DNA of 64,000 bases from Patescibacteria group bacterium. Lineage in GTDB: Bacteria; Patescibacteriota; JAQUNI01. The stretch spans positions 548,062-612,061 of the forward strand of contig JAQUNI010000001.1 of the NCBI GenBank assembly GCA_028717685.1, in the 5' to 3' direction. Position 1 is the first letter of the stretch; every line of letters starts with the position of its first letter. Positions 656 through 62,500 of the stretch are shown one piece after another. The notes below the pieces were generated by a model. That model was not told where the DNA came from. It saw only the letters and a list, made by a program, of their open reading frames with translations, and did not search any database. Made by a program: the position numbers and the translations under genes.

Positions 656-1672
656 TTATAGCATTTTCTGTTTGCGGGGAACAATATTTAAGTGCTCATA
701 AGCAAGATGGGTGGCAATTCTGCCGCGCGGGGTGCGGGTCAATAAACCCGCTTGCAATAAAAATGGTTCGTGCACATCTTCAATCGCGTCTTGTTCTTCG
801 GAAGAAGAAGCGGAGAGGGCATTCAAACCCACTGGTCCCCCGTCAAATTTTTCAATAATCACTTTCAATAGTTCGCGGTCAATGTGGTCTAAGCCTAACT
901 TATCAATTTCCAGCATAGCCAGGGCGGCTTCAACCACCTCCAGATTAATAAAACCGTCTGTTTTCACTTCGGCGTAATCGCGCACTCTTTTTAAGAGCCG
1001 ATTGGCGATTCTGGGCGTGCGGCGCGAACAGCAGGCAAGTTTTTTCAGAGCCGCCTTTTCTATCTTTTGCACTTTTAAGATGCGGCTCGCGCGCGCGATG
1101 ATTTGTTCAATCTCCTCTACTTCATAATAGCGAAGGCGATAAACCGAGCCGAAACGGTCGCGCAAAGGTGAGGAGAGCATACCGATTTTGGTGGTCGCGC
1201 CGATCAGGGTGAAACAGTTCAAGGGGAGGCGGATGTTTTTAGCCGAAGGTCCTTTGCCGATAATAATATCCAAAACCTGCTCTTCCATCGCGGGATATAG
1301 AATTTCTTCAATTTGGCGATTCATGCGGTGGCACTCATCAATAAAGAGGATGTCGCCATCTTCAAGATTAGTCAAAATCGCGCCCAAATCGCCGGGACGC
1401 TCTAGCGCAGGTCCGGAAGTAGTTTTAATCGCTACCCCCATTTCCCACGCGATGATATTGGCAAGGGTAGTTTTTCCTAAGCCTGGCGGTCCGTACAAAA
1501 GGATGTGCTCCAAAGGTTCTTTCCTTTTTTTTGCCGCGGCTAAAAAGATTGCCAGACTTTCTTTGATTTGAGCTTGACCAATGTATTCTTTAATAGTTTG
1601 CGGTCTAAGTTTTAAATCAAGATTTTTGTCTTCATTTTTTTCAGTATGGGAGACGACTGGACTTAATGGCAT
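656..1672 (-). CDS. ruvB: Holliday junction branch-migration ATPase RuvB
   Basis: 338 aa with Walker [12 protein letters not shown] and Walker [11 protein letters not shown]; length and overall layout match RuvB. Confidence 0.95.
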
Positions 1673-7864: not shown

Positions 7865-7890
7865 CCGTTAGAAATAAATTTCTAACGGGG
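7865..7890. promoter_or_regulatory. GC-clamped palindrome ccgTTAGAAATAAATTTCTAAcgggg, a TTAGAA-N6-TTCTAA element
   Basis: Perfect 8+2+8 inverted repeat at 7868-7885. It abuts the stop of the PrsW-like gene and lies about 90 nt upstream of the hsp20 ATG. Confidence 0.4.
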
Positions 7891-56727: not shown

Positions 56728-56961
56728 ATGGGTGGAGCAGGAAGAGTTGATTGTGGTCTGTCTAATAAGGGAGATTCTTATCCGAATTCTCCAATGAACT
56801 ATTCAGATCCGGTAGAATTTATAGCCACACCATCAAGATTACAAGAGAGGGTTGATGCCTTAGAAGCACAAGTTGCAGAACTTACCGAGTTAGTTAAGAA
56901 GCTCCAAAAAGGAGAAAAAGACGAGGAGGCTGACTTATTTGCTCGGACAGAGTTAAGTTGA
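56728..56961 (+). CDS. Hypothetical small protein, 77 aa, with a C-terminal coiled-coil
   Basis: Strong RBS GAAGGAGG; hairpin terminator gctgat/atcagc plus T-run at 57023-57046. Confidence 0.4.
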   Translation: MGGAGRVDCGLSNKGDSYPNSPMNYSDPVEFIATPSRLQERVDALEAQVAELTELVKKLQKGEKDEEADLFARTELS

Positions 56962-57082
56962 AAGGAGGATTTTCGCGATATTGCGGCAGATTTAGTTATC
57001 TAGAGCCCTTATAACGATTAAGGCTGATGAGAAAATCAGCTTTTTGCCAACATTCAGTTGGCTTTTTTTATTTTTTCCCTTT

Positions 57083-57212
57083 GTTGGCTCCATAGTGGCG
57101 TTAGCCCTATGGAGCCATAATGCAAGCCGTGAAGAGAAAATATGATCAGACTTTATGTGCATTGCGGCTCCATAAGCTCCTCGCTTCGCTCGGGGACTAT
57201 GGAGCCAACAGA
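57083..57212. repeat. Cluster of GGCTCCATAG / CTATGGAGCC(AAC) motifs forming two hairpins; a further copy at 59548-59565
   Basis: gttGGCTCCATAG (57083-57095) pairs with CTATGGAGCC (57106-57115). GGCTCCATA (57167) pairs with TATGGAGCCaac (57197-57212). The same 18-mer GGGGACTATGGAGCCAAC recurs upstream of uvrA. Confidence 0.5.
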
Positions 57213-57309
57213 GTCATTAAAGAGCAAGGCAGACAAAGAGACGATGATATCTTCCAAATTATACTTTAACTTTTCAAGACTTAGGTCTGCTCTTCTAATC
57301 TCTGGACTT

Positions 57310-58929
57310 TCAGTCCAGAGTGGTTGGGTTTAACAAATTTTTACTTCTTAATTTATGGTGATAGGCGATCGCAAAGCGGTGAGCTTCGTCGCGAATGCGT
57401 TTTAAGAGCATCAGACCCGCGGAAGCCAGAGGAATGCTAATGGGTTCTTTTTGATGGGGAATATAGATTTGTTCTAATTTTTTCGCCAGCGCGCAGAGGG
57501 GAATTGTGATTTGGTATTTTTTGAAGACCTGAAGAGCGGCATTGAGTTGAGGTTTGCCGCCATCCACTAAAATTAAATCTGGCAGAGGCCAGCTATCCTT
57601 TTGATTAATTCTTTTCAGGCGGCGAGCGAGGATTTCCCGCATCATAGCGACATCATTGGGGGAGTGGATGGTTTTAATTTTAAAGCGGCGGTAGGAATTT
57701 TTTTGAGGTTTGCCGTTTTCGAAAACAATAAGAGAACCGCTCGCCTCTTGACCCTGAATATTGGAGATATCATAAGCCTCAATCCTTTGAGGAGGTTTTT
57801 TAAGCCTTAAATAGCTCGCAAGTTCAATAAGCGCCTTTTCTATTTTTCTTTTTTGCGTTTTTTCTGTTCTGATGCGCGTTTTTAAATACTCACGGGCGTT
57901 TTTTTCTCCCATTTTGATCAGTTTTCTCTTTGGGCCTTTCTGGGGGACAGTGAGTTTTGCTCTAAGGAGAGGCGTTTTTTTCACTGTGGCGGGGAGGATA
58001 ATCTCTTGAGGTTGATTCTCTTTGTAAAAATAGTATTCACCTATAAATCTTTGCAAAATTTCGTTGTCTGTTTTTTTCATTGTATGCAGAAGGATAAAGT
58101 TTTCTTTACCTATGAGATGCCCTTCGCGAATACGGAAAAGATTCACCACGGCCATCTTTTTGCCGCGGGTGACGCTAATCACATCTTGGCTTTTTAAATC
58201 GCGGCTTACTACTTTTTGTTTTTCCTGAATTTTTTCTAAGGCTAAAATCCGATCGCGCAGGATAGCCGCGGTTTCAAAATTTTGTTTAGCGCTTTCCTTC
58301 CCCATTTTCTTTTTTATTTCTCGGATAATAGGGAGATTATGACCGCGCAAAAAAGAAGTAATCTCGCTAATAATTTTTTGGTATGCTTCTCTCTCTATTT
58401 TATTCTCGCAAGGGGCAGGGCAGAGTTTGAGGTGCGAGAAAAGGCAGATGCGATGGGGTAAAATTCGGCAGGAGCGGTAGGGAAAAATTTTGCGCAAGAC
58501 TTTAAGGGTGGTGCGCGCTTCGTCGCTCGCAGGATAGGGTCCGAAAAGAATACCCTCTTCCTTTTTGGTTTTGCGGTTTTCCCTTTCTATAAAAACGCGA
58601 GGGAATTTTTCAGCCGTGATTTTAATGTAAACATAGGATTTGTCGTCCTTGAAGACAATATTATAGCGGGGCCTATATTTTTTGATTAGATTATTTTCCA
58701 AAAGCAGGGCTTCCTGCTCGTTGTCCACGACAATATGTTCTAGGCTTTTAGCGCGAGCGAGCATAAGCTTTTTATCAGGCGCAAGGTTCTCTTGATTTCT
58801 GAAATAAGAAGCAATCCTTTTTTTAAGGTTTTTGGCTTTACCCACATAGATTACCTTTTGATTCTGATCGCGGAAGATATAGATGCCGGGAGCAGGAGGG
58901 AAGTTTTCTTGACTTATTTTGAGGTTCAT
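57310..58929 (-). CDS. uvrC: Excinuclease ABC subunit C
   Basis: GIY-YIG N-terminus (GIYIFRDQNQKVIYVGKAKNLKKR), UvrBC-interaction region and an RNase H-like endonuclease domain. 539 aa, so the C-terminal HhH region appears short or absent. Confidence 0.93.
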   Translation of the reverse strand: MNLKISQENFPPAPGIYIFRDQNQKVIYVGKAKNLKKRIASYFRNQENLAPDKKLMLARAKSLEHIVVDNEQEALLLENNLIKKYRPRYNIVFKDDKSYVYIKITAEKFPRVFIERENRKTKKEEGILFGPYPASDEARTTLKVLRKIFPYRSCRILPHRICLFSHLKLCPAPCENKIEREAYQKIISEITSFLRGHNLPIIREIKKKMGKESAKQNFETAAILRDRILALEKIQEKQKVVSRDLKSQDVISVTRGKKMAVVNLFRIREGHLIGKENFILLHTMKKTDNEILQRFIGEYYFYKENQPQEIILPATVKKTPLLRAKLTVPQKGPKRKLIKMGEKNAREYLKTRIRTEKTQKRKIEKALIELASYLRLKKPPQRIEAYDISNIQGQEASGSLIVFENGKPQKNSYRRFKIKTIHSPNDVAMMREILARRLKRINQKDSWPLPDLILVDGGKPQLNAALQVFKKYQITIPLCALAKKLEQIYIPHQKEPISIPLASAGLMLLKRIRDEAHRFAIAYHHKLRSKNLLNPTTLD

Positions 58930-59142
58930 AGGATAATTGTGAATTGAAATTTGGGCAGTTTGGTTCTTTATTATATTATAGATTTTGATTATTTTTTTGG
59001 AAAGGATGGAAAATCTAAAATCTTTTAGAAAGAGAGGGAGAAATGAAAGTGATTAATGAGGATGAATTAGAGAATTGCATAGAGAATATAATTTCGGAAA
59101 TAGTGGATTTTGAGGATGGGATCGTCTAGAAGCTGTTTGATG

Positions 59143-59465
59143 TTTTGGGAGTTGGTTCTTTGGAAAGTTTAGGGGGTGAACCAACATTTTTAGACGACTT
59201 GGCGAGTGAGGTAGGTGGAATTTTAAGGAAGGGAAAAGCAAGTCTTAGCCAAGATAGAGGTTTAGAAGATATTTTAAAACAAATTGAGGAAAGAATATTG
59301 GTAGTTATTGTAGAATTTGTTAACAGTGTTTTAGATGCCGTTGATTTTGACAAAGGCAGAATAAATATTACTTTAAGGTGCCGCAAACCTTCCTCGGTTC
59401 TGCATGGAAAGATTAAAGGAATAATTGAAGATTATTTAACAGAAGAAACCAGCAATACTGCGTGA
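59143..59465 (+). CDS. Hypothetical protein, about 106 aa, TTG start
   Basis: ORF with no ATG start and no clear RBS; preceded by a 28-aa mini-ORF with RBS GAGGGAG. Confidence 0.25.
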
Positions 59466-59659
59466 TTAGATTCTCGCAGTTTTTTTTATTGGAAGGGAAT
59501 GGAGTCGCACGGATATTTTCATCTTGCAATATGACTCCACAGCCCCTTTGGGGACTATGGAGCCAACACCCTATTATCAAGTTTTGACCCAAGGGCTTTT
59601 TTGGTATATAATTATAAAGTTTAAAAATTTTTAAGTAAGATAATTCAAAACAAAAAATA

Positions 59660-62500
59660 ATGCCGAAGAAAATTATTATCCGCGGGGCGCGGGTGCATAA
59701 TCTAAAAAATATCAATCTAGAGATTCCACGAGATAAATTAGTGGTTTTTACTGGTTTGTCCGGCTCGGGAAAGTCCTCGCTTGCCTTTGATACGATTTAT
59801 GCCGAAGGTCAGCGCCGTTATGTGGAGAGTCTATCCGCTTACGCGCGGCAGTTTTTAGGTTTAATGGATAAGCCGGATGTGGATCAAATCGAAGGATTAT
59901 CACCAGCGATTTCCATTGATCAGAAATCCGCTTCCTCTAATCCGCGGTCTACAGTGGGCACGATTACTGAAATTTACGATTACTTACGTTTGCTATTCAG
60001 CCGCGTCGGCAAACCTCATTGCCTTTCCTGTGGCAAGCCGATTACCGCCCAGACAGCGAGCCAGATTACAGACAAGATTCTTGCCCTTCCTCGCGATTCT
60101 CGGGTAATTATTTTAGCCCCCTTGGTGCGCGATCGCAAAGGCGAACATAAACGGGAAATGGCAGAGATTCAAAGAGCAGGGTTTGTGCGGGTGCGTTTAG
60201 ATGGAGTGATATTAGAATTGGAAGAGGCGCTTCAGGGCAATATTAATCCTAAAAAGAAACACACTTTAGAGATTGTGGTGGATCGGCTAGAGATCAGTGG
60301 AAACAAAGAAAACAGAGAGCGGGTTGCCGATTCCATAGAGACAGCATTAAATTTAGGCAATAGTTTAATTATTGTGCATAATCTGAACACCAGTGAGGAC
60401 TTGATGTTTTCAGAAAATTTTGCCTGCCCGGAATGCGGCTTAAGTCTGCCTAGCTTAGAACCGCGCGATTTTTCTTTTAATTCGCCGCACGGCGCCTGCC
60501 CGGAATGTACTGGTCTTGGCACTAAGTTAGAGGTTGACCCTCTCTTAGTGATTCCGAATAAAAGGCTTTCTATTTATGAGGGCGCGATTCGGCCCTGGGC
60601 AAGGAGCGCTTCGCGCAATGGTTGGTATATTCAGATGTTGGAAGCAGTGGCTTCTTATTACGGTTTTTCCTTGAGCACCCCTGTGGCAGGGCTTAAAAAA
60701 AAGGATCTGGAGATTATCCTTTATGGGACTGCCGATACCCGCATTCCTACCGCGTTTAAAAGAGATTATCGTTATTTGCAAGCCGAAATTCCTTTTGAAG
60801 GGGTGATCCCTAATTTGGCTCGGAGATATCAGGAGACAGAATCTGATTATGTGCGCCGTGAGATTGAAAAATATATGCGCATTTATCCTTGCCCCACTTG
60901 CAATGGTATGCGTCTCAAAAAAGAAATTTTAGGGGTAAAGATTATGGGGCGTTCCATTGTGGATATTGCGCAAAAGGACATTGCTGAAGCCATAACTTTC
61001 TTCCAAAATTTAGAAAAGGATTTAAACGCTCGGGATAAAATTATCGCTAAGCAGATTTTAAAAGAGATCCGCGCCCGTCTTTCTTTTTTGCAAAATGTGG
61101 GTCTTTCTTATTTAACTTTGGATCGGCCGGCAGCCTCCTTGGCGGGCGGCGAATCCCAAAGAATCAGGCTCGCAACCCAGATCGGTTCTGCTTTAGTCGG
61201 CGTGCTTTATATTCTGGATGAACCCTCTATTGGTTTGCATCAAAAAGACAATGTGCGCTTAATTGAAACCTTAAAAAAATTGAGAGATCAGGGTAACACG
61301 GTAATTGTAGTGGAACATGATGAAGAAATGATTTTAAACGCCGACTTTATCGTGGATATCGGACCAGGGGCGGGGAGAGAAGGCGGGGCAATCGTCGCTT
61401 GTGGAACACCGGCAGAGATTAAAAGGAACAAACGTTCTCTTACGGGTCAATATTTAAGCCGTCATCTGGAGATTCCCTTGCCTCAAAAATATCGTCCTGG
61501 AAGCCACAAAAAAATCACCATTTATGGCGCTTCGGCGCATAATTTAAAAGAGATTACCGCGGAGATTCCTTTGGGCAAGCTAGTTTGCGTTACCGGCGTT
61601 TCGGGTTCGGGTAAATCCACTTTAATCTGCGATATCTTGGCGCGGTCCTTGGCTCAATATTTTTATCGCGCCCGCACCCTACCGGCTAAACATAAGAAGA
61701 TCACGGGTTTTTCATATCTGGACAAAGTGATCAGTATTGATCAATCACCGATTGGCCGCACTCCGCGTTCCAACCCGGCGACTTATACTGGCGCATTCAC
61801 CCACATCCGTGATCTTTATGCGGCAACTCAGGAGGCCAAAATTCGAGGTTATCGCGCGGGTCGTTTTAGTTTTAATGTGAAAGGAGGTCGGTGCGAGGCC
61901 TGCCGGGGTGAGGGTTTAGTCAGGATTGAAATGCAGTTTCTGCCGGATGTGTATGTGGAATGCGAAGAATGTAATGGCACCCGTTACAACAAAGAAGCCC
62001 TGGAGATTTATTACAAAGATAAAAATATCGCTGATGTTTTAAAAATGACCGTGGCAGAAGCTTTGCAGTTTTTCCGCAATGTGCCAGCGATATATCAAAA
62101 ATTAATAGTTTTATGCGATGTGGGTTTGGATTATATTCAGTTAGGTCAACCTGCACCTACTCTTTCTGGCGGCGAAGCGCAAAGAGTGAAACTCGCTAGC
62201 GAACTCGCGCGGCGCGCTACAGGGAAGACCCTGTATATTTTAGATGAACCGACCACGGGTTTGCATTTTCACGATGTGGGAAGGCTGTTGGCGGTTTTAA
62301 ACCAACTGGTGGATAAAGGCAATACGGTTTTGGTGATTGAGCATAACTTAGATGTCATCAAATCCGCGGATTGGATTATTGATTTGGGACCGGATGGCGG
62401 GGAGGCGGGCGGCTATCTTGTAGCGGCAGGCACGCCGCGCCAAGTCGCCAAAGTGAAAGCAAGTTATACGGGACAGTTCTTGAAGAAATACTTTCAATAA
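59660..62500 (+). CDS. uvrA: Excinuclease ABC subunit A
   Basis: 946 aa with duplicated ABC ATPase modules (two Walker [19 protein letters not shown], signature LSGGE) and zinc-finger CxxC pairs. Confidence 0.97.

Follow-up and report, generated by a model that had tools for sequence, protein, structure and literature searches.

A repeat bracketing uvrC probably belongs to a REP family cognate to a Patescibacteria RAYT clade

REP/REPIN-RAYT systems have been characterised mainly in Proteobacteria. REP stands for repetitive extragenic palindrome. The REP-associated tyrosine transposase (RAYT, or TnpA_REP) is an HUH/Y1 single-strand DNA nuclease, and E. coli REPs stabilise upstream mRNA. The closest described systems are the REP, BIME and REPIN elements and the RAYT (TnpA_REP) proteins of E. 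coli and Pseudomonas (PMC3116915, PMC3337134, PMC6006769; PDB 4ER8). REP superfamilies are defined by GT[AG]G or CGTC tags (PMC3733652, PMC6006769), and in those with CGTC the stem measures 8-9 bp, the loop 4-5 nt, and the tail is CCA (PMC3733652). For Patescibacteria/CPR, literature searches turned up no account of a REP or a RAYT; the one mention, in a preprint, is of a RAYT KO match and concerns an archaeon only.

The window analysed here is a 64-kb stretch of DNA in which a short motif recurs on both sides of uvrC. The motif is very probably the stem and head of a REP from a family cognate to one Patescibacteria RAYT clade, with three non-autonomous units in the window that make up one complete REPIN and half of an older one. 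The defining association backs this reading, the repeat flanking RAYT genes in relatives. A tblastn search of the 64 kb found no RAYT gene, so we infer an active cognate transposase in the source organism only from those relatives. The features of the region are as follows.

57046..57062, + strand: intrinsic terminator of a small plus-strand ORF (56728-56961); context, outside the element
57054..57077, - strand: relic of the last 7 codons and stop (EKIKKAN*) of an ancestral long uvrC, on the far side of the REPIN
57079..57213, no strand: complete REPIN, a 135-bp inverted doublet of two head-outward REP units and a spacer (inverted repeats I3 and I5; RNA fold)
57081..57125, + strand: REP unit 1, GGC/GCC inner-stem subtype (covariance model R1, 63.8 bits, E 8.6e-23); GTT head, stem GGCTCCATAG/CTATGGAGCC at 57086-57116, then the conserved 3' flank ATGCAA
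57126..57156, no strand: REPIN spacer, kept between REPIN copies at different loci (alignment A5)
57157..57211, - strand: REP unit 2, CCCC/GGGG subtype, 21-nt loop, containing an exact GGGGACTATGGAGCCAACA (R1, 40.1 bits, E 3.8e-13)
57214..57309, - strand: non-coding, from the present uvrC stop to the REPIN; tentatively, by position and length, a decayed HhH-coding region of uvrC
57310..58929, - strand: uvrC, 539 aa, without the HhH domain; context
59495..59523, no strand: what is left of the spacer and of a lost partner REP's inner arm (TGGAGTC, 59500-59506; alignment A3 with L110)
59524..59569, - strand: REP unit 3, surviving half of an older REPIN (R1, 58.6 bits, E 1.2e-20); hairpin GACTCCACAGCCCC-TTT-GGGGACTATGGAGCC at 59533-59564, exact 19-mer at 59550-59568
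59584..59612, + strand: uvrA promoter-like site that agrees with the consensus at 11 of 12 positions and lies 15 bp downstream from REP unit 3 (uvrA ATG at 59660); context

A preliminary description of this DNA had the motif repeated five times. That count holds for the 10-nt core CTATGGAGCC, which is exact in the window at 57086 (-), 57107 (+), 57197 (+) and 59555 (+) and has one mismatch at 57166 (-), all five copies clustering around uvrC only. It does not hold for the full 18-mer, exact in the window at two sites only (57192-57209 and 59550-59567), and it missed a sixth, diverged arm, CTGTGGAGTC, on the minus strand at 59533-59542. At one mismatch or fewer the core has nine matches in the window versus 2.5 +/- 1.4 expected, and none of 100 shuffles reaches nine; the remaining four, each with one mismatch, are isolated sites scattered through the window. 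The 18-mer copy placed earlier at 59548-59565 is real and lies 2 nt further on, because 59550-59567 is the only exact site there. An inverted copy with three mismatches occupies 57083-57100 (0.05 matches expected), and the exact direct repeat is in fact 19 nt long, GGGGACTATGGAGCCAACA, at 57192-57210 and 59550-59568.

The two hairpins reported 3' of uvrC are both present, at 57086-57116 (11-nt loop) and 57166-57206. The non-coding stretch that holds them, from the small ORF stop at 56961 to the uvrC stop at 57310, is 348 bp long and not 340. The third copy does lie just upstream of a uvrA promoter region, being followed at once by the promoter-like TTGACC-17-TATAAT (59584-59612). What was taken for another hairpin beside it, TGGAGTC with GACTCCA, is no separate feature: GACTCCA belongs to the REP hairpin, as its inner arm, and TGGAGTC is left over from the lost partner REP.

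R1, which was built from units of other genomes with the window sequences left out, finds exactly three REP units in the 64 kb (E 1e-13 to 1e-22), and the next match that does not overlap them has E = 0.08. Three units per 64 kb is a low density for a REP family. Every unit has GTT as its 5' head and a 10-bp stem that includes a conserved T·G; its other parts are a bulged T, a short stem whose pairs covary, and a loop that varies. When 37 distinct units of other genomes are aligned, each position of the GTT head is conserved at 90% or more and the next G is invariant. Within the 10-bp stem 99% of cells are paired, the 13 pairs together are 98.5% paired, and stem position 8 is U·G in 32 of the 37 units; as a control, sliding the pairing partner by one to three columns drops pairing below 50%. 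The inner 3-bp stem covaries among CG, GC and UA, with 18 cells changed on both sides versus 2.9 in shuffles, 0 of 500 of which reach the observed value. All three window units fit R1, and the units match the class description of short (about 20-50 nt) imperfect palindromes capable of hairpin formation. They carry neither a GTAG/GTGG guide nor a terminal CGTC; the head GTTG stands at the position of GTAG with another sequence. Such guides are typical of the described REP families and are not a strict requirement of the class. The four arms of the REPIN nest into one long hairpin (outer 57079-96/57196-213, inner 57108-24/57158-74).

The association with transposase genes was seen at six loci in related genomes, where the motif stands in inverted orientation beside a 180-aa gene that scores as a RAYT, at one of them on the downstream side only. 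The gene at L006:5316-5858 reaches 103.8 bits against NCBIfam NF047646 REP_Tyr_transpos (cutoff 80; E 7e-30) and 20.4 bits against the IS200 model (cutoff 55), and its sole PDB match is 4ER8, the E. coli TnpA_REP, at weak similarity (E 0.0035). Head-outward motif copies lie on both sides of this gene. The motif also flanks both sides of four further RAYT genes (L116-L119, 63-89% identity) and lies downstream of another (L032, 88%), whose upstream side is cut by the contig end. The HuH motif and catalytic Tyr are invariant across the clade. A RAYT at 69% identity carries the co-varied REP GGTTCAATAG...CTGTTGAACC, RAYTs at 49% identity or less carry other REPs, and more distant RAYT relatives are flanked by REPs ending in ...CGTCG.

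The exact 18-mer occurs at 26 genome loci, 21 of them in at least seven Patescibacteria-type MAGs: Doudnabacteria (7 loci), MAG138 (8 loci), DP16D_bin.9, RS_2_6, Moraniibacteriota, MAG021 and MEGAHIT-1.518. In these seven the partner arm is present and the motif is found singly, in tandem or as inverted doublets. For the Doudnabacteria MAG the count is at least seven exact 18-mers on six contigs and one RAYT locus; MAG138 has at least nine 18-mers on eight contigs. The five loci outside the Patescibacteria group have no partner arm and fit chance expectation. REP-like extragenic palindromes had been among the first candidates, to be abandoned if the motif was absent elsewhere in the genome and the region neither conserved nor transcribed. 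The search for the motif elsewhere, carried out in relatives only, found the 18-mer dispersed at unrelated loci in many Patescibacteria MAGs and the same repeat flanking RAYT genes, which bears that candidate out.

The window REPIN and a copy at an unrelated Doudnabacteria locus (L022) are identical at 124 of 132 aligned positions, spacer included, and the spacer is also conserved with a second unrelated locus (L003). Because REPIN and spacer together match copies at unrelated loci, we take the doublet to be the unit that is copied. All three window units stand outside supported genes. Across loci, 22 of 59 units (37%) fall in open frames of at least 120 aa versus 83% for background sequence in a naive test; REP units are depleted in such frames and not excluded from them, and clear intragenic cases in other genomes are read through in frame. 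A scan of viral_contigs with the hairpin pattern gave two matches, which have no head, inner stem or 3' flank of the unit; their surroundings appear coding by eye, and they look like chance.

Comparison with relatives suggests different ages for the copies on the two sides of uvrC. The REPIN 3' of uvrC appears to be derived, inserted about 25 nt ahead of the stop codon of the ancestral uvrC. It is absent at three orthologous loci, L110, L112 and L114, where UvrC is 92%, 85% and 64% identical. L112, whose UvrC has 584 aa and PF14520, has intact coding sequence at the REPIN site, and by blastn it is homologous to the window again from 57078, 1 nt beyond the REPIN. It has 154 bp of HhH coding sequence versus 136 diverged bp (57214-57349) and the 135-bp REPIN in the window. 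On the far side the EKIKKAN* relic agrees at 6 of 7 residues with ERIKKAN* of P0002 (tblastn), and the terminator site 57046..57062 is conserved in L112 and L114. The REPIN occupies the former 3' coding end of uvrC, beside what is tentatively a decayed HhH-coding region. The decay is read from position and length; tblastn gave no significant residue-level similarity of 57214-57309 to the HhH domain and recovered the EKIKKAN* relic of the C-terminal end alone. The copy upstream of uvrA is probably older, common to the close relative L110, and decaying. L110 has a full REPIN at this site, and alignment A3 with it runs at 89% identity up to the remnant at 59495-59523 and at 40% beyond. L115 has no copy upstream of uvrA. 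A Logan contig of the uvrC locus stops at a REP.

A different explanation would be that the repeat acts as RNA, either as a structured small RNA gene, as the preliminary description proposed, or as a 3'-UTR element serving as terminator, stabiliser or riboregulator. The fold is strong on both strands (the REPIN as RNA has an MFE of -69 kcal/mol and z = -6.7, with z = -5.6 on the other strand), the inner stem covaries, the conserved U·G counts as a proper pair on the GTTG strand alone, and the E. coli REPs set a precedent as mRNA stabilisers. The hairpin covariation, however, is equally expected of a single-strand DNA substrate. No Rfam model matched the elements, whether over the whole window at gathering thresholds or over 56900-59700 at E <= 1, and ARAGORN found two tRNAs only in the window, both unrelated. 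Units lie in both orientations to neighbouring genes, inside ORFs and flanking a transposase, and the element is mobile and conserved in sequence at non-orthologous sites. In a terminator scan neither hairpin was followed by a T-run, whichever strand was read, so the REP hairpins are not intrinsic terminators. We regard an RNA function as very unlikely.

The idea of a regulator site linked to the uvr genes, LexA-like or for another repressor and governing uvrC and uvrA, is largely refuted and now seems barely credible. The copies do bracket uvrC, one ends 15 bp before the uvrA promoter-like site in an arrangement conserved in L110, and one Parcubacteria contig has a RAYT and REPs between a uvrC-like gene and uvrB. 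However, uvrA and uvrC are at none of the other motif loci. The comparison of the uvrC 3' flank, which had been proposed as a check, goes against a uvr-linked site as well, the copy there being missing from the orthologous loci and the uvrA-upstream copy from L115. The unit itself, a 31-55 nt hairpin with a variable loop, is unlike an operator, and it flanks transposase genes.

It is just as hard to credit a MITE or PATE moved by another enzyme, whether an IS200/IS605 TnpA or a DDE transposase that uses terminal inverted repeats. The 135-bp element does have 18-nt terminal inverted repeats, and its hairpin ends are also like those of IS200/IS605. Against this, no target-site duplication was found at the REPIN ends, which is the expectation for HUH transposition, and single hairpins often occur, alone or in tandem. 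The score of the flanked gene is well above the REP_Tyr_transpos cutoff and well below that of IS200, and neither tnpB nor a DDE gene lies beside copies at any of the loci examined. Two further candidates were rejected: an integron attC, considered for GTTGGC/GCCAAC ends like GTTRRRY/RYYYAAC, by reasoning without a dedicated attC search (units are inverted pairs or tandem and not one per cassette, flank a Y1 transposase and have no integrase nearby), and CRISPR, on account of the irregular spacing and inverted orientations of the copies.

As a REP, the repeat would be moved in a way that can be proposed by analogy with E. coli TnpA_REP and IS200/IS608 TnpA. Recognition by the RAYT would take place on single-stranded DNA and involve both the 5' GTT(G) head and the folded hairpin, including the bulged T and conserved T·G that the hairpin contains. 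The GTTGGCTCCATAGTCCC...GGGCTGTGGAGCC hairpin is a putative single-stranded RAYT substrate, and GTTGGCTCCATAGTCCCCGAAGGGGCTGTGGAGCC is a single-stranded REP sequence that may be a target of the clade RAYT. Cutting and rejoining beside the hairpin would copy the doublet to new sites with no target duplication. Any influence on uvr expression, as an mRNA 3'-end stabiliser or a roadblock, would be a mere by-product.

The repeat is very probably ordinary selfish or domesticated DNA, and neither an RNA gene nor a uvr regulator. As an element its kind is ordinary and its lineage little studied; it differs by its GTTG head and its unusual conservation across candidate phyla. A broader view, for and against which we would weigh the case about equally, is that it belongs to an undescribed Patescibacteria-wide REPIN-RAYT system with a GTT(G) guide and a REP near-invariant across candidate phyla, marked by very long vertical co-persistence under strong constraint or by frequent transfer among these bacteria, and by remodelling of genes by its copies (in-frame insertions, and the uvrC 3' end with its HhH loss). 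Clade RAYTs are 63-76% identical where UvrC is about 43-49%, and with the near-invariant REP this points to vertical co-persistence or frequent transfer.

REP/REPIN-RAYT systems would now extend to ultra-small, streamlined Patescibacteria genomes, with a different head and unusual cross-lineage conservation. Patescibacteria REPs might be used as a marker, and the debate on whether REPINs persist vertically or move horizontally could be tested on them. Two practical points concern the repeat itself: REP repeats break short-read assemblies, and REP copies can change the ends of genes, of which the lost uvrC HhH domain may be an example here and the in-frame insertions are examples elsewhere.

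The likeness to the REPs of E. coli and Pseudomonas is close. Short imperfect palindromes with an unpaired 5' head occur as singles, as inverted doublets forming a long hairpin, and in clusters; a transposase gene lies, once among the loci sampled, between inverted REPs (a 'REPtron'); target duplication is absent; and REP and RAYT co-vary. As in BIME Y and Z, two REP subtypes are joined in one doublet. The differences are the head, GTTG and not GT[AG]G, the Patescibacteria host, and a longer stem of 10 + 3-4 bp in which one T bulges and a T·G is fixed, with a loop that ranges widely, from 3 to about 30 nt. With IS200/IS605 ends and gene-less PATEs the system shares a Y1 HUH enzyme, subterminal hairpins on single-stranded DNA and the lack of target duplication. 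Unlike in IS200/IS605, the hairpins are inverted to each other and not in the same orientation, the enzyme fits the RAYT model, and there is no tnpB. The CGTC-tagged REPs, including the Rickettsia palindromic elements (RPEs; PMC3733652), are likewise small palindromic repeats in reduced genomes, and like RPEs the Patescibacteria units are sometimes inserted in frame in protein-coding genes, although the CGTC tag is absent here. Finally, REPs are as a rule specific to one species, but here several candidate phyla share an identical 18-mer.

The repeated motif around uvrC is real. Its 10-nt core, CTATGGAGCC, occurs exactly at 57086 (minus), 57107 (plus), 57197 (plus) and 59555 (plus) and with one mismatch at 57166 (minus). 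With up to one mismatch allowed, the window holds nine matches, against 2.5 ± 1.4 in shuffled sequences, and none of 100 shuffles reached nine. The preliminary description counted the motif five times, which holds for the core but not for the full 18-mer GGGGACTATGGAGCCAAC, exact only at 57192 and 59550, with an inverted copy at 57083 carrying three mismatches. The exact copy reported upstream of uvrA is present, but it begins at 59550, 2 nt from the position first given. The two direct copies match exactly over 19 nt, and a sixth arm (CTGTGGAGTC, 59533-59542, minus strand) had been missed. The four arms at 57083-57209 do form the two local hairpins described earlier; a single nested hairpin (outer arms 57079-96/57196-213, inner arms 57108-24/57158-74) is more stable, with an RNA fold of -69 kcal/mol (z -6.7) and a DNA fold that is also significant.

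At all Patescibacteria loci, the 18-mer belongs to a single type of hairpin unit, here called a REP, of which it forms the head and outer arm. Read on the head-first strand, its sequence is GTT-GGCTCCATAG-T-CCC(C)-loop-(G)GGG-CTGTGGAGCC-N3-4-TGCAA, and copies are found singly, as doublets inverted with the heads outward, and in tandem arrays. We aligned 37 distinct units, all from other genomes. Conservation is at least 90% at every head position (G, T, T), and the 10-bp stem is 99% paired, with a bulged T and a U·G at position 8 in 32 of the 37. This T·G pairs on the GTT-head strand only. The inner 3-bp stem covaries among CG, GC and UA, with both sides changed in 18 cells versus 2.9 in shuffles (0 of 500 reached this); as a control, sliding its partner by one to three columns left pairing below 50%. 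No T-run follows the hairpins. A covariance model (R1) built from these units, with the window sequences left out, finds exactly three units in the 64 kb:

57081-57125, plus strand, REP unit 1 (E 9e-23)
57157-57211, minus strand, REP unit 2 (E 4e-13)
59524-59569, minus strand, REP unit 3 (E 1e-20)

R1 also scores reverse-strand echoes of these sites, and its best match not overlapping them has E = 0.08. Elsewhere in the window, two hairpins with a common arm, CCGTTAGAAAT.../...ATTTCTAACGG(GG), lie at 1808-1861 and 7865-7888 and could represent a further family of small palindromic repeats in this genome.

The repeat is dispersed. Searching one genome per species, we found the exact 18-mer at 26 loci, 21 of them in seven Patescibacteria-type MAGs: Candidatus Doudnabacteria SO_2017_SWC_9 (seven loci on six contigs), MAG138 (eight loci), DP16D_bin.9, RS_2_6, a Moraniibacteriota MAG, MAG021 and MEGAHIT-group-1.518. 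The five matches outside Patescibacteria are in GC-rich genomes and without a partner arm, a number within chance expectation. Members of the family can be read through within genes, reminiscent of Rickettsia palindromic elements: in DP16D_bin.9 an entire REPIN (two inverted REPs and their spacer) lies in frame between the two domains of one GT4 glycosyltransferase (L119:17082-17188, ..TVGSIVPDSVRTVEPNAGTLAPQPRRKVGDYGAS..), and in MAG021 a single REP contributes GSTAPVAAGDYGAN to an ORF (L010:3914-3955). The mixed orientations and contexts of the units argue against a small RNA gene, one of the candidates first proposed, which is also without Rfam support.

A different palindromic repeat, GTCATTCCCG...CGGGAATC / tgtcattcctgcgaaagcaggaatcc, is found on the upstream side of uvrA in a relative with a 64% identical UvrC (L115:3040-3140) and, in another MAG (L020), about 150 nt 5′ of a motif copy at 1573-1590 (minus). 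The window has only isolated half-sites of it (34948, 21099). This may be a second REP-like family of Patescibacteria.

The association with a transposase gene identifies the family. In the Doudnabacteria MAG, one motif copy lies directly 3′ of an ORF ending ...ANYIHENPVKKEYV...WIYSSARN. Against NCBIfam NF047646, "REP-associated tyrosine transposase" (RAYT), this 180-aa ORF (L006:5316-5858) reaches 103.8 bits (cutoff 80, E 7e-30), versus 20.4 bits (cutoff 55) against the IS200 model; it passes Pfam Y1_Tnp, and 4ER8 (E. coli TnpA_REP) is the one PDB entry related to it. The gene sits between head-outward motif copies, GTTGGCTCCATAGTCCCaagcggaagcgaGGGCTGTGGAGCCaaaaTGCA upstream and GCAttttGGCTCCACAGCCCCttcGGGGACTATGGAGCCAAC downstream. 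Such bracketing of a RAYT by its REPs, the REPtron, is a hallmark of REP-RAYT systems (PMC6006769, PMC3116915). The RAYT has 943 relatives at E <= 1e-20, many of them in Patescibacteria at 60-89% identity, some named "transposase" or "REP element-mobilizing transposase RayT" at source, and the HuH histidines and catalytic Tyr are invariant in the clade. Four more loci (89, 71, 69 and 63% identity), among them a Pacebacteria contig, a Parcubacteria contig and DP16D_bin.9, itself a source of 18-mer matches, all carry R1 REPs on both sides, plus upstream and minus downstream. At a fifth (L032, 88%) the REP is downstream and the contig end cuts the upstream side. REP and RAYT vary together: a metagenome RAYT at 69% identity has a co-varied version, GGTTCAATAGTCCCC...GGGGCTGTTGAACC, and RAYTs at or below 49% identity have unrelated REPs, many headed GTTCGGCG. 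We found no RAYT gene in the 64-kb window, so its REP copies are non-autonomous.

Metagenome RAYTs 40-48% identical to the clade (L033-L059) are flanked by their own REPs, many of them with GTTCGGCG at the start and a G·T wobble within (e.g. GTTCGGCGTAGTCTCCAGACTACGTCG); a GTT-type head may be common to a wider RAYT group. NCBI places one RAYT of the clade (P0210, 65% identical) in a MAG of a Promethearchaeota archaeon, the result either of misbinning or of a transfer between domains. In Parcubacteria GCA_018897195.1 (L117:8478-12487), a RAYT with its REPs is flanked by a short uvrC-like gene (457 aa) and by uvrB; this second case of REPs close to uvr genes is probably a coincidence.

Of the two sites in the window, one lies 3′ of uvrC. 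A protein listed by NCBI under Candidatus Doudnabacteria shares 92% identity with the window UvrC, and the source organism is a Doudnabacteria relative. Relatives keep the order uvrA, small ORF, uvrC, small ORF, secG, SBP, RNase J, and the 135-bp doublet 3′ of uvrC (the REPIN at 57079-57213) is absent from three of them (L110, L112 and L114, UvrC 92, 85 and 64% identical). L112 encodes a longer UvrC (584 aa) that retains the C-terminal (HhH)2 domain (PF14520), which the window's 539-aa UvrC (57310-58929, minus) lacks. Homology between L112 and the window breaks off at 57350 and restarts at 57078, 1 nt beyond the REPIN, where EKIKKAN* (57077-57054), the final seven codons of the long uvrC, survives. 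Given this and its absence from relatives, the REPIN is a derived insertion about 25 nt ahead of the stop of the ancestral uvrC. Between the REPIN and conserved uvrC are 136 bp that match the 154-bp HhH coding region in position and length and are tentatively its decayed remnant. Clean deletions removed the domain in L110 and L114, which suggests repeated loss within the clade. Copying involves the doublet as the unit, since it agrees, spacer included, in 124 of 132 aligned positions with a copy that the Doudnabacteria MAG carries at an unrelated locus.

The present uvrC stop codon lies within a perfect hairpin (57300-57320; 9-bp stem, 3-nt loop, CTCTGGACT-TTC-AGTCCAGAG), at the very point where the frame diverges from that of long-form UvrC. 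The sole public contig encoding this exact UvrC (Logan SRR22315509_3537967, window 57183-59815) ends at 57183, within REP unit 2, about 10 nt ahead of the 19-mer that recurs at 59550, which suggests that the repeat breaks short-read assemblies.

Upstream of uvrA, the element has decayed. The orthologous site in L110 holds a complete REPIN. Its identity with the window is 89% over the first REP and as far as the middle of the spacer, and falls to 40% beyond, where the window has lost the second REP. The supposedly separate hairpin tggagtc…gactcca arises from pairing between the inner arm of the surviving REP and a relic of the corresponding arm of the lost one. The surviving REP, unit 3, ends 15 bp ahead of a uvrA promoter-like site, and L115 has no such REP upstream of uvrA. 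A regulator site linked to the uvr genes, as also proposed, is contradicted by this absence of the element from orthologous sites and by other motif loci, which are without uvr genes. Hairpins occurring alone or in tandem, the transposase model scores and the lack of any target duplication at the REPIN ends (57079-57213) contradict a DDE-type MITE or an IS200 PATE.

The extragenic palindrome reading thus stands, on RAYT flanking and dispersal in Patescibacteria MAGs. By analogy with E. coli TnpA_REP and IS608 TnpA (summarised in PMC6006769), the RAYT would recognise the folded single-stranded hairpin and its 5′ head, then cut and rejoin beside the hairpin. The T·G and bulged T are plausible features for strand-specific recognition.

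Functionally and by most defining features, the repeat is a REP/REPIN-RAYT system. Our literature search, of incomplete coverage, found no description of REPs or REPINs in Patescibacteria; RAYTs of the clade are already labelled as such by automatic pipelines. Described REP families have GT[AG]G or CGTC heads (PMC3733652, PMC6006769), whereas the head here is GTTG, the stem is longer and bulged, the loop is very variable, and the host lineage is Patescibacteria. Also unlike those families, the REP is nearly invariant across candidate phyla, between which the RAYT is 63-76% identical and UvrC about 43-49%.
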